A DNA stretch of 44,863 nucleotides, taken from Gemmatimonadaceae bacterium (lineage in GTDB: Bacteria; Gemmatimonadota; Gemmatimonadetes; Gemmatimonadales; Gemmatimonadaceae). The notes below the pieces were generated by a model. That model was not told the origin of the DNA. It saw only the letters and a program-made list of their open reading frames with translations, and made no database searches. Of the stretch, positions 144 to 42,907 are shown in pieces. A program made the position numbers and the translations under genes. Every line of letters starts with the position of its first letter. The stretch's first letter is position 1. The stretch covers positions 1-44,863 of the forward strand of contig JANOIJ010000203.1 of the NCBI GenBank assembly GCA_031407575.1. Direction: 5' to 3'.

Positions 144-668
144 TCACTCCCCGAACTGCGGCTCATACTGTCCATCGAACTCCTCCTGAAGACGAAGTCG
201 TTCCAACGTGCGCGCACACGTGTTCCAGCGCAGTATCGCATCGTCATTGCCGGCTGCACGGACCTGCGCTGCCTGCTCGAACGACGCCATCGCCGCGCGC
301 AGTGACTGATGCGCCATGGCCTCCGCGTGCATCGCACCCGTGGCCAGCTGTGCGTGACCCAACCGTTCGTCGATGATGCCGGCGTAGTAGTGGCGCTGGT
401 ACGGATCCGTCAGGCGATCGAGCACCGCGCGCGCACGCAGCGCCAACTCGCGCGGCTCCGCGCCGAACTGGTCGGTGAGCGAGAGCAAGAGCATCACCAG
501 CACCTGCTGGTTGGTCGCGTCCACCTCGAGAATGTCGAGGCAGATGCTTTCCGTCGCCCATGACTGGTTGAGCAGCCGATACCGCTCGGCCTTCTGGAGC
601 GCGCGCGGAACGGCCGCCGCCGAGATGGTCTTCAATGCGATGACGCGGTCCATTGGTCCCTCCGTCAA
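144..668 (-). CDS. Hypothetical soluble alpha-helical protein (174 aa), last gene of the sdh operon
   Basis: ORF 144..668. Its start overlaps the sdhB stop by 4 nt (665-668). The predicted protein is non-hydrophobic and helix-rich with no motif I recognise. Confidence 0.5.
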   Translation of the reverse strand: MTEGPMDRVIALKTISAAAVPRALQKAERYRLLNQSWATESICLDILEVDATNQQVLVMLLLSLTDQFGAEPRELALRARAVLDRLTDPYQRHYYAGIIDERLGHAQLATGAMHAEAMAHQSLRAAMASFEQAAQVRAAGNDDAILRWNTCARTLERLRLQEEFDGQYEPQFGE

Positions 669-1489
669 CTCTTCTTCGCGCCGCGCACGAGACGCACGAG
701 CGCCTTGAGCGGATCGTAGTGCGCGTCGACCACGCGCTCCTTGAGCGGAATGATCGCGTTGTCAGTGATGGTGATGTGCTCGGGACACACCGTGGTGCAG
801 CACTTGGTGATGTTGCAGTACCCGATGCCGAAATCATCCTTGAGCGCCGTCGTGCGATCGGCGATGTCGAGCGGATGCATTTCCAGAGCGGCGGCATAAA
901 CGAGATAGCGCGGGCCGATGAACTCCTCGTGCTTGTGGTGGTCGCGCAAGACGTGGCAGACGTCCTGGCAGAGGAAGCACTCGATGCACTTCCGGAATTC
1001 CTGCACGCGGTCCACGTCGCGCTGGTCGATGCGCCACGTGCCATCCGCGTTGTCGGGAGGACGCGGCGTGAACTTCTGGATCTTCGGCTTGACGCGAAAA
1101 TTCCACGAGACGTCGGTGACCAGGTCGCGCACGTGCGGAAAGGCGCGCATGGGCTCGACGGTCACGGGCTCTTCGGCGGGGAGTTCATCGAGCCGCGTCA
1201 TGCACATCAGCTTCGGCTTGCCGTTGATCTCGGCCGAGCAGGACCCACACTTGCCCGCCTTGCAATTCCAGCGCACGGCGAGGTCGTTCGCCTGCTCGGC
1301 CTGGATCTGGTGAATGGCGTCGAGCACCACCATGCCGTCGTTGGTCTCGGTGGTGTAGTCGTGATACTTGCCGGTGCCGTCAGCACCGCGCCAGATCCGG
1401 AAGCTGCGCGCCTGGTGTCCGACGGCGGCATCCTGTGCAGCCTGTGCGGCGGTGTAGGCATCAACGGCGTGCGACTCTGGTGCGGTCAC
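665..1489 (-). CDS. sdhB: Succinate dehydrogenase/fumarate reductase iron-sulfur subunit
   Basis: 274 aa with three Cys clusters (CKAGKCGSCSAEING for 2Fe-2S; CIECFLCQDVC and CNITKCCTTVCP for 4Fe-4S and 3Fe-4S). Its start overlaps the sdhA stop (ATGA at 1486-1489). Confidence 0.9.
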   Translation of the reverse strand: MTAPESHAVDAYTAAQAAQDAAVGHQARSFRIWRGADGTGKYHDYTTETNDGMVVLDAIHQIQAEQANDLAVRWNCKAGKCGSCSAEINGKPKLMCMTRLDELPAEEPVTVEPMRAFPHVRDLVTDVSWNFRVKPKIQKFTPRPPDNADGTWRIDQRDVDRVQEFRKCIECFLCQDVCHVLRDHHKHEEFIGPRYLVYAAALEMHPLDIADRTTALKDDFGIGYCNITKCCTTVCPEHITITDNAIIPLKERVVDAHYDPLKALVRLVRGAKKS

Positions 1490-3303
1490 GATGCCATCTC
1501 CTTGATGATCGCTTCGAGCTCGGCCGGCATTGCAGGGATGGTCTCGCGCGACAGTTGCATCGCGCCGTCCTGTCCGCGCGAAATGATGTGATTGAACGTC
1601 CCGAATGCGGGATCCTTGTCCGGATAGTCGTCGCGAAAATGACCGCCGCGACTCTCGCGACGCTCCAGCGCCGAGCGTGCAATGGCTTCCGATACAATGA
1701 GGAGGTGGCGGAGATCGAGCGCCGTGTGCCAGCCAGGGTTGTACTCGCGATTACCCGGCACGCCGACGTTGGCCGCGCGTGTCTTGAGCACCTCGAGCTC
1801 AGCGAGCGCACGCTCCATCTCGGACTGCACGCGCACGATGCCGACGAGATTCTGCATCGTGGTCTGCAGCGACTCCTGCACCTGGAACGGGCCTTCGCCC
1901 GCGGCGCCACGCTCGAAGGGCGCGAGCGCCATGTGGGCGCTCTCGTCCACTTCGGCGTCGCTGACGGACGGTACTGACGTTCCACGCGCGAACGCGGCCG
2001 CGTGCTCGCCGGCGCGCTTGCCGAACACGAGCAGGTCCGACAGCGAATTGCCGCCGAGTCGGTTGGCACCGTGCAGGCCGGCCGCGCATTCGCCGCACGC
2101 GAAGAGGCCGGCGACGGTGGACATCTGCGTGTCGCCATCAACGCGGATACCGCCCATGATGTAGTGCGTCGTGGGCCCGATCTCCATCGGTTCCTTCGTG
2201 ATGTCGATGCCCGCGAGCTGCATGAACTGGTGATACATGCTGGGGAGCTTCTTCCTGATGTGCTCCGCGCCGTTGGGAATGCGCTCCTTGATCCACGAGA
2301 TGTCGAGGTACACGCCGCCGTGCGGGCTGCCGCGTCCGGCTTTTACCTCGCTCACGATCATGCGCGCGACGTGATCGCGCGTGAGCAGCTCGGGCGGGCG
2401 ACGCGCTTCCTTGTCGCCCTGTGTGTAACGCCAGCCCTCTTCCTCGTTGTCGGCCGTCTGCGGCTTGTAGTTGTCGGGGATGTTGTCGAACATGAATCGC
2501 TTGCCCTCGCGATTCCTGAGGACGCCCCCTTCCCCGCGCACGCCTTCCGTGACGAGGATGCCGCGAACACTGGGCGGCCAGATCATGCCGGTGGGATGGA
2601 ACTGCACGAACTCCATGTCCTGCAGCGCCGCGCCGGCGAGGTACGCGAGGGCATGTCCGTCGCCAGTGTATTCCCAGCTGTTGCTGCTGATGTTGTAGGC
2701 GCGACCAACGCCGCCGGTGGCGAGCACCACCGACTTGGCGCGGAAGATCTTGAACCGTCCGCGCTCGCGATCGTACGCGAACGCGCCGGCGATGCGGTCG
2801 CCGTCGCGCAGGAGCGTGACGACTGTGCACTCCATGTGCACGTCCATGCCCTGGTGAACGCCGTGATCCTGTAAAGTCCGGATCATCTCCAATCCGGTCC
2901 TGTCACCGACGTGCGCGAGACGCGGATACCGGTGCCCGCCGAAGTTGCGCTGAAGGATCCGCCCGTCGGGTGTGCGGTCGAAGAGCGCACCCCACGCCTC
3001 GAGCTCCCGCACGCGCGCGGGCGCTTCCTGCGCATGCAGCTGCGCCATGCGCCAGTTGTTCAGGTACTGCCCGCCGCGCATGGTGTCGGCGAAGTGGACG
3101 CGCCAACTGTCGCGGTCGTCCACGTTGGCCATCGCCGCCGCCACGCCGCCCTCGGCCATGACGGTGTGAGCCTTGCCGAGCAGCGATTTGCAGACGACGC
3201 CAACCTTCGCGCCGGTGCTTGCGGCTTCGATGGCCGCGCGCAGTCCGGCTCCGCCGGCACCAATGACGAGGACGTCGTGATCTATGATCTGGTATTCCGG
3301 CAT
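1486..3303 (-). CDS. sdhA: Succinate dehydrogenase/fumarate reductase flavoprotein subunit
   Basis: 605 aa with an N-terminal FAD-binding fold (DVLVIGAGGAGLRAAIEA) and the HPTG flavin-attachment region. It lies next to sdhB. Confidence 0.92.
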   Translation of the reverse strand: MPEYQIIDHDVLVIGAGGAGLRAAIEAASTGAKVGVVCKSLLGKAHTVMAEGGVAAAMANVDDRDSWRVHFADTMRGGQYLNNWRMAQLHAQEAPARVRELEAWGALFDRTPDGRILQRNFGGHRYPRLAHVGDRTGLEMIRTLQDHGVHQGMDVHMECTVVTLLRDGDRIAGAFAYDRERGRFKIFRAKSVVLATGGVGRAYNISSNSWEYTGDGHALAYLAGAALQDMEFVQFHPTGMIWPPSVRGILVTEGVRGEGGVLRNREGKRFMFDNIPDNYKPQTADNEEEGWRYTQGDKEARRPPELLTRDHVARMIVSEVKAGRGSPHGGVYLDISWIKERIPNGAEHIRKKLPSMYHQFMQLAGIDITKEPMEIGPTTHYIMGGIRVDGDTQMSTVAGLFACGECAAGLHGANRLGGNSLSDLLVFGKRAGEHAAAFARGTSVPSVSDAEVDESAHMALAPFERGAAGEGPFQVQESLQTTMQNLVGIVRVQSEMERALAELEVLKTRAANVGVPGNREYNPGWHTALDLRHLLIVSEAIARSALERRESRGGHFRDDYPDKDPAFGTFNHIISRGQDGAMQLSRETIPAMPAELEAIIKEMAS

Positions 3304-3336
3304 TCGTATTTGATTGGTCTTAGGCTGCGATTCTTC

Positions 3337-3513
3337 GGAACTACGGAACAGCGCGATTCACGATCCGTACGGATGCAACGGAAACAGCCGGGTATCGGTC
3401 AGCCACCCTCACCACTCACGGCCACGAAGACATCAAGAATTCTCTTTGTTCATGAACGCGTCGAGACACGCGCACGGAACGATCCGGCAGTTTCCGTTGC
3501 ATCCGTCAAGATC
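3337..3513. repeat. Family-B structured element, copy 1 (long inverted arms 3362-3391 and 3484-3513; leader GGAACTACGGAA at 3337-3348). It sits within the sdh operon between sdhC and sdhA.
   Basis: GATCCGTACGGATGCAACGGAAACAGCCGG pairs with CCGGCAGTTTCCGTTGCATCCGTCAAGATC. There is about 85% identity to a second copy at 35844-35977. Local GC is lower than in flanking sequence. Confidence 0.7.
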
Positions 3514-3552
3514 TGTCCAATTGCTTTTCACTCGCGCACTGGACAACGGTGA

Positions 3553-4344
3553 TCAGAAAAACCGGAAGTCCGACCAGATTCCCATCGAGCACAGCCGCAC
3601 GTAGATGTCTGAGAACGCCACCCAGAACAGGCTCGCCCACGCCCAGTTCATGTGGCCGCGATTGAGACAGCTCACGCAATCGTACGCCTTCTGGCGCACG
3701 GGACGTCCCGACAGGCGGTCGAGGTACCCGCCAACGAGATGACGCAGCGAATGACAGCCGAGCGTGTAGCCGCTCAGCAGGACGACGTTGATCACGAGAA
3801 TCAGCGACCCGATGCCGATGCCGATGTGCTTCACCCCGCTCGCGTCCGCGAACCAGAAGCCGCGATACGCATCGAGGCCGAGGATCACGAGGAAGGCCAG
3901 CGCCGCATACAGGAAATAGCGGTGCACGTTCTGGAGAATGAGCGGCAGGCTGCGCTCGCCGAGGTAGCTGTTGCGTGGCTCGCCGACGGCACAGCCCGGC
4001 GGATCTGCCCAGAACGCCTTGTAGTATGTGCCCCTATAGTAGTAGCACGTGAAGCGGAAGCCGGCGGGGAACGGAAGGATCAGCAGCGCCGGCGAAATGG
4101 GAGGCACGAACCAGGGCGCCGTGGCGAACCACGCATGCGGCGAGTTGCCGACGATGAGCGGCGAATAGAATGGCGAGAGATAGGGACCGAACTCATAGTG
4201 CGCGTTCTGGAACGCGGCCCAGGTGGCGTAGGCGAGAAACGAGCTGAGCACGACGAACGCGCCGACCTGGGGCACCCACCACGCATCGCGACGCATCGTT
4301 TCGCCGAATTTCCGGCGCGTGAGCTGAACGACCTGTTGAGCCAT
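3553..4344 (-). CDS. sdhC: Succinate dehydrogenase/fumarate reductase cytochrome b subunit (b558-type membrane anchor)
   Basis: 263 aa and very hydrophobic, with about 5 predicted TM helices and conserved His residues. It sits directly upstream of sdhA in the same orientation, as in type-B SdhCAB operons. Confidence 0.7.
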   Translation of the reverse strand: MAQQVVQLTRRKFGETMRRDAWWVPQVGAFVVLSSFLAYATWAAFQNAHYEFGPYLSPFYSPLIVGNSPHAWFATAPWFVPPISPALLILPFPAGFRFTCYYYRGTYYKAFWADPPGCAVGEPRNSYLGERSLPLILQNVHRYFLYAALAFLVILGLDAYRGFWFADASGVKHIGIGIGSLILVINVVLLSGYTLGCHSLRHLVGGYLDRLSGRPVRQKAYDCVSCLNRGHMNWAWASLFWVAFSDIYVRLCSMGIWSDFRFF

Positions 4345-4460: not shown

Positions 4461-4633
4461 TTGTCGTCCCGAGCCCTTCGACGAAGTTCACCCTGAGCGA
4501 CGCCGAAGGGCTCAGGGTAAACTTCGGCGAGGGACCTGCGGTGTCGCTCCGCGGCAAATGGAACAGCACAAGCAGGTCCCTCGGTCGCGAAGCCTGCCCT
4601 GAGCCAGTCGAAGGGCTCCTGTCGGGACGACAA
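4461..4633. repeat. Structured multi-hairpin element: an outer stem (4461-4482 with 4607-4633) enclosing two inner hairpins, one of which has a CCTGAGC...GCTCAGG core
   Basis: TTGTCGTCCCGAGCCCTTCGAC pairs with GTCGAAGGGCTC(CTGT)CGGGACGACAA. Inner hairpin 1 is GAAGTTcACCCTGAGC...GGCTCAGGGTaAACTTC. Inner hairpin 2 is GAGGGACCTGC...GCAGGTCCCTC, a perfect 11-bp stem. The element lies in the divergent region between the sdhC start (4344) and the kinase start (4680). Confidence 0.7.
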
Positions 4634-10085: not shown

Positions 10086-10213
10086 GTGCAGGTACAGCAG
10101 CAGGTGCAGATCCTTCGAACAAGTGCAGATCCTTCGCTGCGCTCAGGATGACAACCCGAGCAGTTGCAGGTACTACAGCAGTTGTCATCCTGAGCGCAGC
10201 GAAGGATCTGCAC
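10086..10213. repeat. Family-A composite repeat element (1.5 forward units, an inverted unit, plus the internal sub-repeat GCAGGTAC(T)ACAGCAG twice)
   Basis: GTGCAGATCCTTCGCTGCGCTCAGGATGACAAC at 10126-10158 and its reverse complement at 10181-10213. It occupies the entire gap between the peptidase stop (10223) and the ilvE start (10063). Confidence 0.85.
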
Positions 10214-10222
10214 CTAGGGCGC

Positions 10223-11632
10223 TCATGACATCGCGAGCTCGTCCCACAGTGTGGCGATGGCGCGCATGCCTTTCGTGAAGTTCTCGACGCTCATCCACTC
10301 ATCGGGCGCGTGGGCGTTCTCGCCGGGTAGCCCGAAACCTACTAGAAGAACCGGCGCGCCGAGAACCCGCGCGAAATCCCCGACTACCGGAATGGAGCCG
10401 CCCTCCCCGGTGATCACGGGTTCGCGCCCGAACGCCGCCGCCAGCGCGCGGCGCGCCGCGTCGAACAGCGGTCCGGTGATCTCGGCGCGCCATGGCTTGC
10501 CGCCGTGCAGGTGCGTCACCGTGGCCGTCACACCATCGGGCGCCACGCGCGCGACGTGCGCGGCCATGAGCCGCTCGATCTCGGCGGGATCCTGATCGGG
10601 GACGAGGCGGCAGCTCACCTTCGCCATCGCCTTCGCAGGGAGCACCGTCTTGCCGCCCTCGCCCGTGTAGCCGCTCAGCAGGCCGTTCACCTCGCAGGTC
10701 GGGCGTGTCCACAACCGCTCCAGGACGGTGTATCCCGGCTCACCGCCGAGCGCGGGCGAGCCGGCTTCGGCGCGAAAGTGCTCGTCGTTAAAGGGGAGCG
10801 TCCGCATTTGCTCGCGAACCGCCGCCGGCCATTCGTCCACGGCGTCATAGAAGCCGGGAATGGCGACGCGACCCTCCGCGTCGTGCATGGTGGCCAGGAT
10901 GCGCGCGAGGGCCATGGCCGGATTGACGACGGCGCCACCGTAACTGCCCGAGTGCAGGTCCTGCGCGGGGCCCTGCACGTCGACCTGGAAGTACGCGAGC
11001 CCCCGGAGCGACGACAGGATGCTCGGCAGGCCGGGCGCGAACATGGCGGAATCCGAGATCACCACGGCGTCGCAGGCAAGCTCCGCGGCGTGCGACTCGA
11101 CGAACGACGCCAGGTGCTCGCTGCCAACCTCCTCCTCCCCCTCGGCAAGGACCACCACGTTGACGGGGAGCGTTCCACGCACCTCGAGATGCGCCTCGAG
11201 CGCCTTGATGTGAAGGAACAGCTGGCCCTTGTCGTCCACCGATCCGCGAGCATAGAGGCGGCCGTCGCGGATGGTCGGCTCGAACGCGGGCGACGTCCAG
11301 AGCTCGAGCGGCTCAGCGGGCTGCACGTCGTAGTGGCCGTAGACGAGCACCGTGGGCGCGCCCGACGGCGCGCCGCGCCATTCGCCCACCACCACCGGAT
11401 GGCCGGCCGTGGCGTGCACCGTGGCCGTGAGGCCGGCGGCGCGCAGCGACTGGGCAGTCCACTCCGCTGCGCGCACGGTGTCTGCATCGTGCTCGGAACG
11501 CGCGCTAACACTCGGGATGCGCAGAAACTCGAACAACTCGCCGCGAATCCGTTCGTCGTGCGTCGTGAGATAGGCGTCGAGGTCGGCAGGAACGTCGGTC
11601 ATCGTGCGCTGTGGAGGAGGAAAATTGATCAA
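10223..11632 (-). CDS. M20-family metallopeptidase (dipeptidase/ArgE/DapE/CPG2-like)
   Basis: 469 aa with M20 signatures (HYDVQPAEP...; GSVDDKGQ metal-binding Asp; Glu-Glu in EGEEEVGS). Confidence 0.85.
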   Translation of the reverse strand: MINFPPPQRTMTDVPADLDAYLTTHDERIRGELFEFLRIPSVSARSEHDADTVRAAEWTAQSLRAAGLTATVHATAGHPVVVGEWRGAPSGAPTVLVYGHYDVQPAEPLELWTSPAFEPTIRDGRLYARGSVDDKGQLFLHIKALEAHLEVRGTLPVNVVVLAEGEEEVGSEHLASFVESHAAELACDAVVISDSAMFAPGLPSILSSLRGLAYFQVDVQGPAQDLHSGSYGGAVVNPAMALARILATMHDAEGRVAIPGFYDAVDEWPAAVREQMRTLPFNDEHFRAEAGSPALGGEPGYTVLERLWTRPTCEVNGLLSGYTGEGGKTVLPAKAMAKVSCRLVPDQDPAEIERLMAAHVARVAPDGVTATVTHLHGGKPWRAEITGPLFDAARRALAAAFGREPVITGEGGSIPVVGDFARVLGAPVLLVGFGLPGENAHAPDEWMSVENFTKGMRAIATLWDELAMS

Positions 11633-11747
11633 AACGGACGGCTATAACGTTTCGGGATCGGAAAGTGACACCAATCAAGCGCGCTCCGCTCGCGGCATTC
11701 GGCGCATGATAGCATTGTCGGGTAAATCATTCAGGCGAGCGTAATTC

Positions 11748-12290
11748 ATGACCGCTGTCGATACCATCTCATACCGTTCGACGTCGATGCCGACCAAGAC
11801 CAGCGCCCTTCGGGACGAGATCAAGCAGACGCGGCCGTTCAGCTCGCCCGCGCAAGAGGGTGTGGTGAGCATCCTTCGCACGGCGGCGTTGCTGACGCGT
11901 CATGTCTCGCACGTGGTCGAGGGCAGCGGCGTCACGATCCAACAATACAACGTGCTGCGCATCCTGCGCGGCGCCGGAAGCGTCGGCCTGCCGACGCTCG
12001 CCATCCGGGACCGGATGATCGAGGAGGCGGCCGGCATCACGCGCCTGCTCGACAAGCTGGAGACGTCGGGTCACGTCGTGCGTGAGCGGTCGACGCCGGA
12101 TCGCCGGCAGGTGCTCTGCCGGATCACGCCGGCTGGCCTGCGCGTGCTCACCCAGCTGGACGAACCTGTCGACGCCGCGAACGAGATGGCGCTGCACGCC
12201 ATGAGCGACGACGAGAAGAATTCACTCATCGAGCTCCTCGGCGCGGTGCGCGCCGGCCTCGCCACGAAGCCCGCGAATCGCGCCCGTTAG
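11748..12290 (+). CDS. MarR-family transcriptional regulator
   Basis: 180 aa with a winged-HTH MarR core (QQYNVLRILRGAG...LPTLAIRDRMIEEAAGITRLLDKLETSGHVVRERSTPDRRQVLCRITPAG). Confidence 0.85.
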   Translation: MTAVDTISYRSTSMPTKTSALRDEIKQTRPFSSPAQEGVVSILRTAALLTRHVSHVVEGSGVTIQQYNVLRILRGAGSVGLPTLAIRDRMIEEAAGITRLLDKLETSGHVVRERSTPDRRQVLCRITPAGLRVLTQLDEPVDAANEMALHAMSDDEKNSLIELLGAVRAGLATKPANRAR

Positions 12291-15103: not shown

Positions 15104-15165
15104 CGAGAACGGAGAGCGGCGAGCGGAGAACGGAGAACGGCGAAACGGCGAACGGCGAACGGCGA
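15104..15165. repeat. Imperfect tandem heptamer array G(A/C)GA(A/G)CG, about 9 copies, in the divergent promoter region
   Basis: gagaacg gagagcg gcgagcg gagaacg gagaacg gcgaaacg gcgaacg gcgaacg gcgag. It lies between the PHP-gene start and the thioredoxin-domain gene start (15257). Confidence 0.7.
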
Positions 15166-15256
15166 GTATCCTGCGCGACGAACCTGCGTTTCGCCGATCG
15201 CCGCGCTCCGCTCGCCACTCCCGTTCCCAGTTCGCCGCGCGCCGGTACTTTAGAAG

Positions 15257-17278
15257 ATGGCCAATCACCTCGCCGGCGAGACCAGTCCGTACCTGCTCCA
15301 GCACGCGCACAATCCCGTTGATTGGCGGCCGTGGGGCGAGGACGCGCTGGCGCTCTCGCGCACCGAGCGCAAGCCCATCCTCCTCAGCATCGGCTACGCG
15401 GCGTGCCACTGGTGTCACGTCATGGAGCGCGAGTCGTTCGAGAACACCGCGATCGCCGCACTCATGAACGAACACTTCGTCTGCATCAAGGTGGACCGCG
15501 AGGAGCGCCCCGATCTCGACGCGATCTACATGCAGGCCACGCAGGCCATGACGGGACACGGCGGATGGCCGATGACGGTGTTTCTCACGCCCGAGGGCGA
15601 GCCGTTTTACGCTGGTACCTACTTTCCGCCGGACGACCGCCACGGCATGCCCAGCTTTGGCCGAGTGTTGCTCGGCGTGAGCGATGCGTGGCGAAGCCGG
15701 CAGGACACCGTGGTGCGCACCGCGGCGCAGATGCGCGAGCTGTACGCGGCGAGTACCGAGCGCACACGCTCCACCGGCACGCTCGACGAAGCGCTACTGC
15801 TCCGCGCGGTCGATTCGTTGAAGCAGCGGTACGAACCGAAGTTCGGCGGCTTCGACGGCGCGCCGAAGTTTCCGCCGACCATGGCGCTGGACTTCGCGCT
15901 TCGGAGCTGGGCGCGTACGGGCGACGCGGATGCGCTCGCGATGGTGACGCACACCTTCCAGCGTATGGCGCGCGGCGGCATCTACGACCAGGTGGGCGGC
16001 GGGTTCTCGCGCTACAGTGTGGATGCGTACTGGCTCGTACCCCACTTCGAGAAGATGCTGTACGACAACGCGCTCCTTGTGCGGCTCGGCGCGCATCTCT
16101 ACCAGGCCACGCATGACGCTGAGGTGCGACGCGTCACTGAGGAGACGCTCGGCTGGGTGTTCCGGGAGATGACGTCGCCCGAGGGCGGATTCTATTCCTC
16201 GCTCGATGCGGACAGCGAGGGCCATGAGGGCCGCTACTACGTCTGGGACTCCAGCGAGCTCGACGCATTGCTCGGCGAGGACTCGTCGCTGCTGAAGTCG
16301 TACTGGGGCGTGACGCCCGGCGGCAACTTCGAGGGGCGCAACATCCTCTTCGCGCCGGATGATCCGTCGGCGGTTGCGCGCGCGCAGGGCGTGACGGAGC
16401 CCGAGTTGCGGACAGCGATCGAGCGCGCGACGCGCATCCTGTACGACGCGCGTGAGCGCCGCGTGCGTCCTGCGCGAGACGAGAAGATCCTCGCCGGGTG
16501 GAACGGCCTGATGCTGCGCGGCGTGGCCGAGGCGGCGCGTGCGTTCGGCGACGACGATCTTCGTGCGCAGGCGGTGACGAACGGGGAATTTCTCTTTCGC
16601 GCGCTGGTGCGCGACGGACGCGTGCTGCGCTCCTACAAGGATGGCGTCGCGAAGATCGACGGCTTCCTTGAAGACCACGCGGCACTGGGGCTTGGCGCGA
16701 TTGCGCTGTATCAGCTCACCTTCGATCGTGTGTGGATCGATCGCGCGCGCGCGCTCGGCGACCAGATTCTCGGGCGGTTCTGGGACGATGACACGCACGC
16801 GTTCTTCGACACGGCGGCGGATGCGGAACGGCTGGTGACGCGTCCGCGGGACGTCACCGACAACGCGCTGCCGAGTGGAACGTCACTGGCGATCGAGCTG
16901 CTGCTGTCGCTCGGTGACTACTTCGATGTGCGCGAGTACACCGACCGCGCGACGCACATGCTGGAGACAGTAGCCGAGCCGATGGCGCGGTACCCCACGG
17001 CGTTCGGCCACGCGCTCGGCGCGGCGGACATGGCGGTGCGCGGCGCGGTGGAGGTGGCGCTTGTGGGACCGGTGTCGGACGAGCGGTTTCAGGCGTTGCT
17101 GCGCGCGGTGGCGGAACGGTACGTGCCGTCGCTGCTACTGGCCGGCGGTGATGCGCACGGCATCGCGGTGATGAAGGATCGTGCGCGCAACGAGCCGACG
17201 GCGTTCGTCTGCCACGCATACACATGCTCTGCTCCAACGACCGATTCTGCGATCCTCGGCAAACTGTTGTCATCCTGA
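15257..17278 (+). CDS. Thioredoxin-domain protein of the DUF255/YyaL family (thioredoxin fold plus six-hairpin glycosidase-like domain)
   Basis: 673 aa. The N-terminus ([54 protein letters not shown]) is the hallmark of DUF255 and spermatogenesis-associated protein 20-like proteins. Confidence 0.88.
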
Positions 17279-17296
17279 GCGTCGCCGAGGGATCAC
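17267..17296. repeat. Partial family-A unit (TTGTCATCCTGAGCGTCGCCGAGGGATCAC) overlapping the stop codon of the preceding gene
   Basis: The TGA stop of the thioredoxin-domain gene (17276-17278) is the TGA inside the repeat core CATCCTGAGC. Confidence 0.7.
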
Positions 17297-17304
17297 AGAA
17301 CACG

Positions 17305-17443
17305 TTTGGGGTCAGAGTCGGGGTCAGAGTCGGGGTCAGAGTCGGGGTCAGAGTCGGGTTTGGTCAGAGTCGGGGAGGCGCGTAGCGTTTGGCTGCGCAT
17401 GGGATCGGAATCGCCCGCGACTCTGACCCCCGACTCTGACCCC
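17305..17443. repeat. Tandem 12-mer GGGGTCAGAGTC x4 plus one degenerate copy (17308-17371), with two inverted copies GACTCTGACCCC (17419-17443)
   Basis: Direct reading gives four perfect consecutive 12-mers, about 45 nt of unique sequence, then two reverse-complement copies. This could form a long hairpin. Confidence 0.8.
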
Positions 17444-17478
17444 AACTAGTTGACAAAAGCAACTATCTGCGCCAACAT
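17444..17478 (+). promoter_or_regulatory. Putative promoter/operator of the MarR-GNAT gene: 8-bp palindrome AACTAGTT overlapping TTGACA, and inverted repeat AGTTG-N7-CAACT
   Basis: TTGACA at 17450-17455, and a weak -10 (CAACAT) 17 nt downstream. Dyad symmetry overlapping the -35 is typical of MarR autoregulatory operators. The ATG is at 17485. Confidence 0.45.
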
Positions 17479-18454: not shown

Positions 18455-18548
18455 CCGAGGACTGAGACTGGCGACTGGCAACTGGAGACTGGAAACTGGC
18501 TGCGATGGACCCGTACGGTCAGTCTCCAGTCTCCAGTTTCCAGTCGAC
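18455..18548. repeat. Imperfect 7-nt-period tandem repeats (NNACTGG x6) followed by their inverted complement (CCAGT(C/T)T x4), giving a palindromic convergent intergenic region
   Basis: actgagactggcgactggcaactggagactggaaactgg ... cagtctccagtctccagtttccagtc. It lies between two convergent gene ends (18438 and 18560). Confidence 0.75.
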
Positions 18549-21322: not shown

Positions 21323-21340
21323 TGACGTACGATGGCGCTG

Positions 21341-21396
21341 ATGACATCCTGAGCGCAGCGCTGTCATCCTGAGCCCTTCGGCTCAGGATGACAAGG
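21341..21396. repeat. Family-A repeat: a partial unit plus a perfect hairpin TTGTCATCCTGAGCC-cttc-GGCTCAGGATGACAA
   Basis: It fills the gap between convergent stops (21322 plus strand, 21397 minus strand) and acts as a likely bidirectional terminator. Confidence 0.8.
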
Positions 21397-24300
21397 CTAC
21401 ACGCCGGCGACGCCCAGCATCGCGCTCATCGCGTCCACGTTCACCACGCCACGCGAATGCATGGCCGCGTCGGCTGATTCGACCAGCGCCCCGCCAGCCG
21501 AGCCACCGGCGAGCAAGCCGCGCTGGCGACGGGCGATGGTGGCCTGAAGGGCAAGGCCGGCGCTGGCGAGCGACGTCTCCGCCGTCTCGAGGGCGCGAAT
21601 GGCGCCTGCGTCGTCGCCGCGCGCATGGGCCAGGCCTGCGTTCAGGCGCTCCACGTACCCCGCGGCCCAGCTGCAGCGCTCGCGCGAGATGGCTCGCACG
21701 TCGCGCGCCGCGCGTGCAAGGTGGCGCGCTCGATCGACTCCCGCGGCTGCCGCCTGCAGCGCGCCACGAGCGCGGACGTCGCGGAGCATCACGCGCGTCA
21801 CCTGATTCTGCGTCTGCAGCGACCGCACCATCGCGGGCCAGCGCCGCGTCACCTCGGTGCAGGCGTCGGCGCCGGCACCACTGTACAGCAGCATGAGCGC
21901 ACGCGAGAAGAGCACGGACACGTGCTGGATGTGAAATCCGCGATAGGGCCACAGGACGAGCGCTTCGTGGAGGAAGGATTCGGCGCCATCGATGTCGTCG
22001 GCCACCAGTCGCTCATACGGCAGCGGAAACGCGAGCAGGTTGGTCACCATGAAGTGATCGCCGCGAGCACGCGCCTCCGGTTCCCATGCTCGCAGGCGCA
22101 CGCCAAGCTCGAGGTTGTCGCCGCAGTGCGACATCGCCCACGCCATCATCGTGCGCGTCGTGGACAGCTCCCACCACGCGCCGGTGCACTGGTCGCGAAA
22201 GATCTCTTCAGCTTTCGCGCCGGCAGTGACCGCGTGCGAGAACCGCCCATGGAGGAAGGCCACCCAACCATCGGCGAAATCCACCATACCACGTGCCTGC
22301 GGGCTCTCCACACGGTTGGCAAGACTGCTCGCCAACCGCAGCATGTCGCTCGACCGCCGTGCCGTTCGAGGACCTCCTGTGGCGGTGAGGACCGCTTCCC
22401 AGGAGAGCGCGAGGGCCAGCCGACGGGGCTCGCCGGCCGCGAGCGCCAGGAGCAGCGCCTGCGACTGGAACGCGGCCACACGCACGACGTCTACTGCGCC
22501 GAGCGCCGTGCTCACGGCCCGGAGGGCATCGATGCGGCGAAGGTCACGCAGCGGAATGTCGCGCTCCGTTCGTTCGACGAAGTGCAGTCCACGGAGTCGC
22601 AGCTGGACGCGCCGAGCGATCAACTGCGCCATGAGCGCGACGGACGACTGCGGGGACCCAAGCCCCACGCCGCGCAGCACGTGCATGAAGAGGGCGCGTC
22701 CTTCATCCACGTGACCACTGATGGCGTACTGCGTGGCCGCCATGCGCTGGAGGTCGAGACGCTCGTCCGCGCCAGCAATCGTCGCCGCACGTTCATACGC
22801 CTGCGCGGCGAGCTGACCGCGTCCCGCGTTGGCCAGTGCGTTTCCCATCGAAGTCAACAGCACGCAGCGCTGGCCGGGCTCGATGAGCGGAGACTCGAGC
22901 GCTCGCTGGTAGAGCGTGCCCGCACGAGCGAAGGCAAGCGCTCGCTCCGCTCCCTCGGCCGCCCGCGCGAAGTGCGCGCTCGCACGCGCGATCTCGCCGC
23001 ACTCGGCGAAATGCACGGCCACCGTTTCCTGATCCGCGTCCGGACGCGCGGCTAGTGCCGTCGCGAGACTCTGGTGATGCCGGCGCCGAATGGCCGGCTC
23101 GAGACGCGCGACGATGGTCTCGCGAATGCGATCGTGGTACGTCTCGACCTCGTCGAGCGGTGCGGAGCCGGTGGATCGCAACAGGTGTGCATGGCGCAGC
23201 AACGCCAGCGCGTGCGGGTCTCGCGCCGCTTCGCCGCTCGCGTCACGCCAGACGTCGTTGCGGACCGGCCGGCCGGCGATGGCCACGAGACCGAGGAGCT
23301 CACGCGCCACCGAGGGCAACGCCTCGATGCGCGCCCAGAGTGCCCGCTCCAGGTCGAACGGCGCCTCGCTGGCGTGGTGTGGCCATCCCGGGCGGGTCCG
23401 CACATATCGCGCGAGTTCGTGCATGAAGAACGGGTTGCCGTCCGACTCCGCGGACACGCGGTTCACGACGTCGTCGTTGGAGCCCGGCGGGAGCAAAGAC
23501 CTCGCGAGTGTCTGGGCCTCGGCTGCGTTCAGTGCGGATAGCGTGAGGTAGTCCGGGCGTGCACCATCGCGGCGAGCGGCGTGTGCCGTCGCCAGCACCT
23601 GGAGACACGGGCTCGTGTGCTCGTACTCGCTTCGGTACGTCGCCACGAAGAGCATTCGTGGAGGCGCAGCGCCAGTGAGGAGATGCGCGAGCAGCTCGCC
23701 GCTGTCGTCGTCTCCCCACTGGAGATCGTCGATGACCACGACGACGGTCGCCGTCTCGCCAAGGCTCGACAGCAGTGCACGCAGCACGCCGAACGCACGA
23801 CGGCGCACCTCGCGAGGATCCCGAACGATGACGCCCCCGCGCGCCGCCGCGATTGCGCCGACGCGCACCAGCACCGGGAACAGCCTGCCGAGGAAGGCGA
23901 TCTCCGTCGGGAGCAGGTGGGCGAGTTGCTGCGGCGAGCGCGTGCGCAGCCACGACGAGAGTGCGTCGACGACCGCGTCGACCGCCTTGAACGGCACCGA
24001 TTCCTGCTCGTCGCAGCGCCCCTCGAGGACCAGCACGCCCTCGTCGCGCCCGGCTTCGCCGAGGAAGTGCGCGATGAGCGCGCTCTTGCCGCCACCGGAC
24101 GGGCCGCGGACATACACCGTGCGACTCGCGCCACGCCTCACTGCATCCAGCGCCGACTCCAGTGCGTCCAGCTGCGCCACGCGACCCACGAACACAGGTG
24201 TGGGCTCCTCCATCGTCGGGGAGCGCTCGTCGTCACCCTCGATTACTGCAGCGAGTCGCGCGATCGTCTCGTCGGCCGCAGGCCTGAGCGCCGGCTCGGC

Positions 24301-35829: not shown

Positions 35830-35843
35830 AGTCTCGGGATCAC

Positions 35844-35977
35844 GGCAACTACGGAAGAGCGGGGTTTCACATTTTACGGATTCTACGGAGACTGCCGGAT
35901 ACGGCAGAAGCTCCTTCTGTTCCGTGGTATCCGGCAGTTTCCGAAGCATCCGTAGAATCCGTCAACGCGCTGTTGAC
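35844..35977. repeat. Family-B structured element, copy 2: three nested perfect stems (TACGGATTCTACGGA/TCCGTAGAATCCGTA; CTGCCGGATAC/GTATCCGGCAG; CAGAAG/CTTCTG) plus the palindrome GTCAAC-N5-GTTGAC
   Basis: It is about 85% identical to 3337-3513 in the leader (GGNAACTACGGAAnAGCG) and in the right arm (CCGGCAGTTTCCGnnGCATCCGTnnAATCCGTCAA). It lies between convergent gene ends (35829 and 36042) and is AT-richer than the surrounding sequence. Confidence 0.7.
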
Positions 35978-36041
35978 ACGCGGATGCCCAGTTCGCATGC
36001 GCGCATCGACACGTGGCGTTCGACAACGACAACTACTCCGC

Positions 36042-38509: not shown

Positions 38510-38610
38510 GTTGTCATCCTGAGCCCAGCGTTGTCATCCTGAACGCAGTGAAGGATCTGCACCTCAGCACGACGGGACGTGCAGATCCTTCGCTGCGCTC
38601 AGGATGACAC
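38510..38610. repeat. Family-A repeat element (two forward units, a 16-nt loop, and an inverted unit)
   Basis: It starts 2 nt after the RidA stop and ends 4 nt before the stop of the convergent FAD-oxidoreductase gene. Confidence 0.85.
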
Positions 38611-40127: not shown

Positions 40128-40208
40128 TTGTCATCCTGAGCGAAGCGAAGGATCTGCACTTCCGCCGTAGCCAGGTGCAGATCCTTCGCTTGCCTCAGGA
40201 TGACAACC
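40128..40208. repeat. Family-A inverted repeat pair in the divergent promoter region
   Basis: TTGTCATCCTGAGCGAAGCGAAGGATCTGCAC -15 nt- GTGCAGATCCTTCGCTTGCCTCAGGATGACAA. It lies between divergent starts at 40047 (minus strand) and 40263 (plus strand). Confidence 0.85.
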
Positions 40209-42835: not shown

Positions 42836-42907
42836 CTGTCATCCTGAGCGTAGCGAAGGATCTGCACCTGCCGACGTGCAGATCCTTCGCTGCGCTCAGG
42901 ATGACAA
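42836..42907. repeat. Family-A perfect inverted repeat (32-nt arms, 8-nt loop)
   Basis: CTGTCATCCTGAGCGTAGCGAAGGATCTGCAC ctgccgac GTGCAGATCCTTCGCTGCGCTCAGGATGACAA. It fills the gap between convergent stops (42817 and 42908). Confidence 0.9.

Follow-up and report, generated by a model that had tools for sequence, protein, structure and literature searches.

The stretch of DNA analyzed here, hereafter the window (44,863 nt, contig JANOIJ010000203.1 of a Gemmatimonadaceae bacterium), carries the genes of an Sdh1-type succinate dehydrogenase on its reverse strand (Table 1). The flavoprotein and iron-sulfur subunit genes, sdhA and sdhB, both pass an NCBIfam equivalog cut-off and overlap by 4 nt. 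The membrane anchor has no Pfam or NCBIfam model, and its 263-aa ORF was recognized only through the match to chain C of PDB 7D6V, the membrane anchor of the mycobacterial succinate dehydrogenase. Downstream of sdhB (144-668) lies a gene for a conserved protein of 170-174 aa, for which there is again no Pfam or NCBIfam model. At the two borders of the sdhC-sdhA spacer, the sdhA start codon is conserved (MPEYQIIDHD in the window vs. MPDYQTVDHD in relatives), and the position of the sdhC stop codon matches that of relatives when the C-termini are compared. No Shine-Dalgarno-like sequence was seen upstream of sdhA, as is also the case for several other genes of the window.

Table 1. Coordinates of the sdh genes, of the two hairpin copies and of a second repeat family in the window.
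Feature	Coordinates	Strand	Description
sdhC	3553..4344	-	263 aa; membrane anchor of Sdh1-type succinate dehydrogenase; PDB 7D6V_C, E 4.5e-54
sdhA	1486..3303	-	Flavoprotein; passes NCBIfam equivalog cut-off
sdhB	665..1489	-	Iron-sulfur subunit; passes NCBIfam equivalog cut-off
sdhC-sdhA spacer	3304..3552	-	249 nt, from ORF coordinates
Copy 1, sdhA-side arm	3338..3391		3' arm in the sdh mRNA; nhmmer arm model E 7e-8
Copy 1, loop	3392..3483		92 nt, AT-rich
Copy 1, sdhC-side arm	3484..3536		CCGGCAGTTTCCGTTGCATCCGTCAAGATC...; 5' arm in the sdh mRNA
Copy 2	35842-35977		Arms 35855-35909 and 35920-35974, loop of 10 nt
Copy 2, left arm	35842..35909		Three units (one fewer than right arm); takes in the GGCAACTACGGAAGAGCGG outer segment
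Copy 2, right arm	35920..35977		Four units: TTCCGAAGCA / TCCGTAGAA / TCCGTCAA, plus outer CGCGCTGTT
Copy 2 spacer	35830..36041		212 nt, between a convergent amidase gene and a gene for 130-160 aa
Family A, full	8-128, 10123-10213, 38532-38609, 40128-40206, 42837-42906
Family A, partial	4468-4610, 17268-17290, 21339-21407

An earlier note on this DNA had singled out the sdhC-sdhA spacer for its length (given as 250 bp, and 249 nt by ORF coordinates) and for a structured repeat with a second copy elsewhere in the window. This observation is confirmed, and the repeat is referred to below as family B. Both copies are indeed AT-rich, with a GC content of 0.534 for the spacer, 0.544 for copy 2 and 0.53-0.55 for the elements, against 0.669 for the window. 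Within the spacer, positions 3362-3391 pair with 3484-3513 across an interval of 92 nt, 26 of the 30 nt (87%) being complementary, while the best 30-nt inverted repeat in shuffled spacers (n = 200) reached 16.9 ± 1.0 matches and never more than 20. Described earlier as perfect to near-perfect, the inverted repeat is thus near-perfect, but not perfect. Its sdhA-side arm consists of an outer ACGGAACAGCGCG segment followed by the 9-nt units CGTACGGAT / GCAACGGAA / ACAGCCGGG, and the loop holds a small internal hairpin (GCGTCGAGACACGC) as well as a run of GTGAG-type heptamers. In the predicted sense-strand RNA, copy 1 folds with -82.6 kcal/mol (z -4.2 vs. shuffled sequence), and the A-rich last ~20 nt before the sdhA ATG are left unpaired.

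Copy 2 lies between two convergent genes and folds with z-scores of -5.7 and -6.3 on its two strands, i.e., both copies are far more stable than their shuffles. The left arm of copy 1 and the reverse complement of the right arm of copy 2 are about 85% identical over ~48 nt, and the right arms of the two copies about 73% identical over ~55 nt, with no relation between the loops. The second copy is thus real, and its likeness to copy 1, first given as about 85% across the leader and both arms, is one of arms. The arm motif CCGGCAGTTTCCGWWGCATCCGT occurs four times in the window, once in each arm of both copies, where zero occurrences would be expected by chance. With no more than ~85% identity between the two copies, nothing points to a recent transposition. 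The same copy 2 is present in a near-identical strain (L046, GCA_043737975.1; 9 mismatches in 7778 nt). A Logan contig from an independent assembly of the same organism (L047) ends inside the copy 2 hairpin, at its position 2628 (about 35930 in the window).

The sdh loci of relatives were retrieved through SdhC homologues and represent ten other lineages, with SdhC proteins 77-88% identical to that of the window. In these, sdhC and sdhA are separated by 7 nt (L037, L045), 9 nt (L033, L035) or 15 nt (P0001 contig), or overlap by 4 nt (L039-L042) or 1 nt (L051, L052); with 0-15 nt at this junction in relatives, the long spacer is not a general feature. When aligned, the sdhC stop and sdhA start codons fall at the same places in the window and in the relatives, and ~240 nt of the spacer (about 3311-3549) represent additional DNA relative to these genomes. 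The family B element is absent from the junction in 8-9 of the 10 other lineages. Similarly, the orthologous copy 2 spacer is only 7 nt long in a relative (L048), against 212 nt in the window. Copy 1 was thus gained in this lineage at the sdhC/sdhA junction, and belongs neither to the ancestral nor to the conserved make-up of the sdh operon; copy 2 was also gained, between two convergent genes. The empty or near-empty sites in relatives, together with the copies found elsewhere in Gemmatimonadota (see below), support an insertion at both loci.

One relative (L043, GCA_031362845.1) also has a longer junction, with a 99-nt sdhC-sdhA spacer (10793-10891) formed by an unrelated hairpin in which three GGTGAGA units face five TCACGNN units. 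Since its sister L045 has 7 nt at this position, the junction must have gained a hairpin a second time in L043, independently of the window. We considered whether the copy 1 loop could be a nested copy of this GTGAGA hairpin, and rejected the idea as the local alignment score was not significant (22 vs. 16.8 ± 2.3 in shuffles, maximum 31).

These comparisons bear directly on the function first suggested for the hairpin, namely setting the ratio between the membrane anchor and the catalytic subunits. As a conserved feature of the operon, this was not borne out: the junction is short in relatives, the element also occurs at unrelated loci, and the only other hairpin seen at the junction, that of L043, is unrelated, which does not correspond to a conserved cis-regulatory element of the sdh operon. 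A weaker version would be that the hairpin, whatever its origin, has been exapted as an operon-internal RNA element and kept to tune the anchor against the catalytic subunits, through RNase III processing, stabilization of the upstream segment or uncoupling of translation. The very stable sense-strand hairpin (-82.6 kcal/mol, z -4.2), the 20 nt predicted to be unpaired before the sdhA ATG and the different foldback acquired independently by L043 (but not by its sister L045, with 7 nt) would all fit such a role, which has also been proposed for the cyanobacterial STRR hairpins located between hupS and hupL (PMC2670836). However, the absence of the element from this junction in most other lineages (8-9 of 10) and the family B copies at loci without any link to sdh make this exaptation quite unlikely, and the unrelated repeats at other operon junctions (e.g., between sdhB and the next gene in L051) rather fit a passive colonization of tolerated gaps.

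To define the distribution of family B, a 23-nt arm pattern was scanned against one genome per species (185,579 species genomes), which yielded 14 loci, five of them genuine (L003, L005, L010, L011 and L012) and all five from Gemmatimonadota MAGs. A scan of metagenomes with such a pattern gave 18 hits, among which L023 alone was genuine, the others being chance matches within genes of unrelated organisms. Further copies thus exist in other Gemmatimonadota, and all six genuine hits outside the window are hairpins with common arms and differing loops of 20-113 nt. Overall, the family includes eight full copies (two in the window and six elsewhere) and one degenerate extra copy in L003, in which most of one arm is missing. 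No hit was obtained in viral contigs (pattern scan) or in plasmids (blastn), and an nhmmer profile built from 17 arms detected no further copies in the window, nor any in the sdh and amidase loci of related genomes (L033-L052, ~230 kb) except in the near-identical strain (L046/L047). Rfam 15 gave no match in the window at gathering thresholds, none at copy 1 with E-values up to 10, and only noise at copy 2 (19.6 bits vs. a gathering score of 100), and we found nothing in the searchable literature combining Gemmatimonadota with MITE, REP or REPIN terms.

A full family B element is about 125-220 bp long and comprises two inverted arms of ~50 nt around a loop, each arm being made of 3-4 tandem 9-nt units (NNNACGGAT) and a loop-side cap (AAACWGCCGG). 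When all arms are aligned in one orientation, from the loop outward, an inner cap (CCGGCWGTTTCCG) is followed by the 9-nt units with their TCCGT/ACGGA core, and then by a genome-specific outer segment (CGCGCTGTTCCGTAGTT in the window and L012, CCTCGCGGTTGCC in the JBBQJC01 MAG, CCTCAATCGGTAT in L005), the outer ends themselves varying between genomes (GCAACCGCGAGG, ATACCGAATTGAGG, ACGGAACAGCGCG). The two arms of an element may have unequal numbers of units, as in copy 2 and L010. Taken alone, an arm is no more stable than its shuffles (z -0.38, +1.32, -0.03 and +0.11), so that the hairpin requires both arms.

All copies are intergenic, the only ORFs there being spurious ones that cross them, and their contexts are diverse: within an operon, between convergent (copy 2, L010), divergent (L023) or co-directional genes, and ~100 nt after a 5S rRNA gene (L005). 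Neighboring genes code for ArsR, a DHDPS-like protein, a PQQ dehydrogenase, a histidine phosphatase, a rhamnosidase and a luciferase-like oxidoreductase, and the orientation of the copies relative to these neighbors is inconsistent. No transposase adjoins any of the copies, and the 24 window proteins scanned included neither a match to a transposase family nor a Y1 transposase or RAYT gene.

Several of these loci deserve a description of their own. In L005 (528-644 and 305-431), a 5S rRNA gene (RF00001, 101 bits) with its terminator is followed, after ~100 nt, by the family B copy. The loop of L012 (2354-2445) holds a canonical bidirectional intrinsic terminator (aaaagcGAAAGACCC...GGGGTCTTTCgtgctttt), which means that the arms enclose an older hairpin, or that the loop accepted one. 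In L011 (51-233, 240-370, 484-2322), the copy is flanked by the end of a small ORF on one side and by a PQQ dehydrogenase gene on the other. Relatives have a DUF4440 gene ahead of a PQQ dehydrogenase gene in their sdh loci (21 nt apart in L035), of which the small ORF of L011 may be an ortholog. Finally, hairpins built from CGAAT/GAATG units directly adjoin the family B copies of the JBBQJC01 MAG (L003 7290-7420, L010 4137-4290 and 4420-4560), forming mosaic clusters reminiscent of BIMEs.

The related arms also help to evaluate where such hairpins come from. One possibility would be that they were made locally, by replication slippage or template switching, and merely look related, and the window does build foldbacks from tandem short units elsewhere (15105-15230, 17306-17447 and 18466-18546). 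However, an arm sequence of ~48 nt is common to two loci here and to at least four other assemblies, including the non-periodic segments AACAGCGCG and AAACTGCCGG, which convergence does not explain, and arms from different loci cluster together. The earlier note had also offered, next to a MITE, a small RNA gene inserted in the spacer. The insertion itself is supported by the empty sites and the further copies, but a small RNA gene is at odds with the lack of promoter-like or terminator-like signals at the element, the lack of an Rfam match and the inconsistent orientation to neighbors. We thus regard a small RNA gene or locally made look-alikes as very improbable.

All copies fold as long hairpins (z -4 to -9.5), and the stems were evaluated for covariation on a loop-trimmed alignment (A3) with a 28-pair consensus stem. 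In this alignment, 90.8% of the stem cells are paired, compared to 23-46% with slid partners, and two-sided changes affect 8 of the 28 stem pairs vs. 4.1 ± 1.4 after shuffling, where a count of 8 was reached in 2 of 500 cases. RNAalifold gave a covariation term close to zero (+0.47), as there is hardly any variation among the central 20 pairs. Conservation is best in the inner 26 nt adjoining the loop, with an identity of 85% within copies and 84% between copies, while the outer zone of the arms reaches 57% within a copy vs. 36% between copies. Pairing is thus kept where the sequence drifts, and the inner core is constrained as sequence. Both features would be equally expected from a selected RNA hairpin and from a DNA element that needs to fold, or to be recognized, in order to spread. 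The earlier note had linked its case for a structured repeat to further copies and to covariation in the stems: such copies exist, and the stems do keep pairing through two-sided changes. G-U asymmetry was rejected as a guide to the transcribed strand, as each copy was oriented arbitrarily, according to the search pattern.

An inner core conserved beyond the needs of pairing (0.85 within and 0.84 between copies), and a motif recurring at a regular 9-nt spacing, could also be expected from a binding array, in which ACGGA motifs spaced by 9 nt and placed head-to-head would be bound by a DNA- or RNA-binding host protein. Yet the number of units is unequal between the arms of one element (copy 2, L010), and we know of no candidate binding protein for the family B arm motif. 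A bidirectional transcription terminator devoid of U-tract could likewise account for the copies at gene 3' ends (copy 2 and L010 between convergent genes, L005 after a 5S rRNA gene) and for the L012 arms enclosing a canonical terminator. However, copy 1 sits inside an operon, where an efficient terminator would be harmful as the downstream genes are needed in a fixed ratio, L023 is located between divergent genes, and the stems are not followed by a T-tract. No terminator-like site was found in either element of the window; the single one nearby (3575-3560) is within the end of sdhC, and this number is within chance expectation. Taken together, a protein-binding array or a terminator appears improbable. 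Other candidates were dropped on inspection, i.e., a CsrA sponge (the ANGGA motifs are in stems, not in loops), and parS, a DnaA box, an IHF site, an integron attC site, a retron and an IS200/IS605 or IscB guide RNA, for which neither a matching motif nor the necessary neighbors were seen.

Beyond family B, about a dozen intergenic regions of this genome carry hairpin repeats. They include family A (TGTCATCCTGAGCGCAGCGAAGGATCTGCAC; Table 1), whose inverted pairs form hairpins of 31-36 bp, mostly directly at gene 3' ends, and which is far more abundant than family B in the window, without any Rfam match. Three foldbacks are built from tandem units that face their complement, and share the architecture of family B with unrelated sequences: a 7-nt GARMCGGM unit (~9 units, 15105-15230), a 12-nt GGGGTCAGAGTC unit (5 units, 17306-17447) and a 7-nt NACTGGN unit (5 units, 18466-18546). 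In L051, the gap that follows sdhB in the sdh cluster, before the next gene, holds four tandem 42-nt units similar to family A (TGTCATCCCGCACGAGCGAAGCGAGTGTCGGGCTCGACGCCT; 11561-11768). With so many other intergenic hairpin repeats in the genome, the sdh copy represents one case of a general habit. It is thus tempting to speculate that a phylum-specific class of tandem-unit foldbacks exists, with arms of 7-12-nt units (ACGGA, CGAAT, GTGAGA, ACTGG, GGGGTCAGAGTC), which would spread through a hairpin-dependent process unlike classical TIR transposition and would repeatedly colonize operon junctions of 0-15 nt. We consider such a class unlikely, but if it is real, the host may have recruited some of its members as operon decouplers or RNase III sites.

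The explanation we favor, with a probability of about three in four, is that the sdh hairpin is a copy, inserted at this junction, of a palindromic ("foldback") repeat whose small, non-coding members are dispersed in a clade of Gemmatimonadota and form a so far undescribed family. The earlier interpretation is therefore partly supported: its alternative of a MITE-like insertion was right in substance, against a conserved role in stoichiometry or a gene for a small RNA. Two features of MITEs are found in family B, i.e., a non-coding element of 125-220 bp (within 50-800 bp) and presence or absence at orthologous sites (the sdhC/sdhA site and, in L048, the copy 2 site being empty in relatives). 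Its arms are inverted repeats of 30-55 nt, and MITEs have terminal inverted repeats of at least 10-15 bp that mark conserved ends. A classical TIR-based MITE is best conserved at its termini, whereas family B is most conserved next to the loop and least at its outer ends. No direct repeat indicative of a target-site duplication (2-10 bp in MITEs) is evident at L003, L005, L010 or copy 2. ATCA flanks copy 1 on both sides and is a weak candidate for such a duplication, the nearest empty site coming from a genome with only 88% SdhC identity. No parent insertion sequence was found, no transposase lies in the window or beside the copies, and plasmids and viral contigs gave no match to the element. 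A strict MITE label would thus be premature, although the element was inserted. We would rather picture an element that spreads as DNA, either with a trans-acting enzyme or through a hairpin-dependent process.

A gene overlap or a gap of 7-15 nt, as seen in the relatives, is the usual arrangement for translational coupling, and an RNA duplex of 30-45 bp is the kind of substrate cut by RNase III. Once inserted, the element would be transcribed within the sdhCAB mRNA and form a double-stranded hairpin of 30-45 bp. From its predicted stability, this hairpin (-83 kcal/mol) probably breaks the sdhC-sdhA translational coupling of the relatives. In that case ribosomes would have to start on sdhA independently, at the A-rich, unstructured stretch of 20 nt that precedes its ATG, and such an independent initiation is plausible since these nucleotides are unpaired in the predicted fold. 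The hairpin may also be an RNase III substrate, and would be a likely target for this enzyme or a barrier to 3'-exonucleases. A secondary, lineage-specific effect on the sdh mRNA is thus possible, yet any change in subunit ratio would be a by-product of a tolerated, possibly exapted, insertion, and not the reason why this sequence exists.

Recognizing an insertion here removes a tempting but wrong functional annotation, that of an RNA device controlling the subunit ratio of complex II, and documents a family of repeats, along with a more general occurrence of tandem-unit foldbacks, in a phylum for which the searchable literature holds no such elements. It also points to a natural experiment, in which an essential three-subunit operon whose first genes are normally coupled tolerates 240 bp of stable hairpin, such an insertion between sdhC and sdhA having happened twice independently, with different elements. 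Finally, palindromes break short-read assemblies, as illustrated by the L047 contig ending in copy 2, which bears on the quality of Gemmatimonadota MAGs.

Among known systems, REPINs are associated with a single-copy RAYT gene and reach tens to hundreds of copies per genome. Like REP/REPIN sequences, family B consists of two conserved inverted sequences around a spacer which together form a hairpin, and it is intergenic. REPINs are in addition vertically persistent, with lineage-specific sequence variants (PMC3116915, PMC3337134), which we count as a further likeness. However, a REP unit is in itself an imperfect palindrome of 20-40 nt, whereas family B arms do not fold alone (z -0.4 to +1.3), their spacer differs from copy to copy, and the scanned proteins of the window included no RAYT.

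A second analogue may be found in the STRR hairpins of filamentous cyanobacteria which, like the TAACTGA repeats of Beggiatoaceae and family B, are intergenic arrays of short tandem units pairing with an inverted array to form hairpins. STRR have been found between the subunit genes of one enzyme (hupS-hupL), and transcript stability or translational coupling were proposed as roles for STRR and TAACTGA repeats (PMC2670836, PMC4853749). These are simple tandem arrays of 7-nt units, whereas family B, in another phylum, has 9-nt units (3-4 per arm) and conserved non-periodic flanking segments, and a single arm sequence of ~50 nt is found again at different loci and in different genomes; true heptamer foldbacks do exist elsewhere in the window and in L043. 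In eukaryotes, foldback (FB) transposons have long inverted arms of short tandem repeats flanking a variable middle. They are orders of magnitude larger than family B and unrelated in sequence, and the comparison is thus an analogy only.

The closest functional analogues are the Correia elements of Neisseria (NEMIS/CREE) and the ERIC/IRU elements of enterobacteria. Family B differs from both in having no sequence similarity to them, no TA or other target-site duplication evident, and no IHF site or promoter seen, as well as in its arms of tandem 9-nt units, its conservation, which is lowest at the termini and highest in the loop-proximal 26 nt, and a copy number that looks low (2 in 45 kb). 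It resembles them in being of similar size (about 100-155 bp for Correia and ERIC), non-coding, an imperfect palindrome over nearly its whole length, dispersed in intergenic regions including inside operons, and found in length variants with extra internal DNA. Both known elements are co-transcribed into long RNA hairpins, with Correia elements binding RNase III and being cleaved or protected by it (PMC2649163), and ERIC elements changing the stability of flanking transcripts (PMC2229807), which are the kinds of secondary effect that the sdh copy of family B may have on its own operon.
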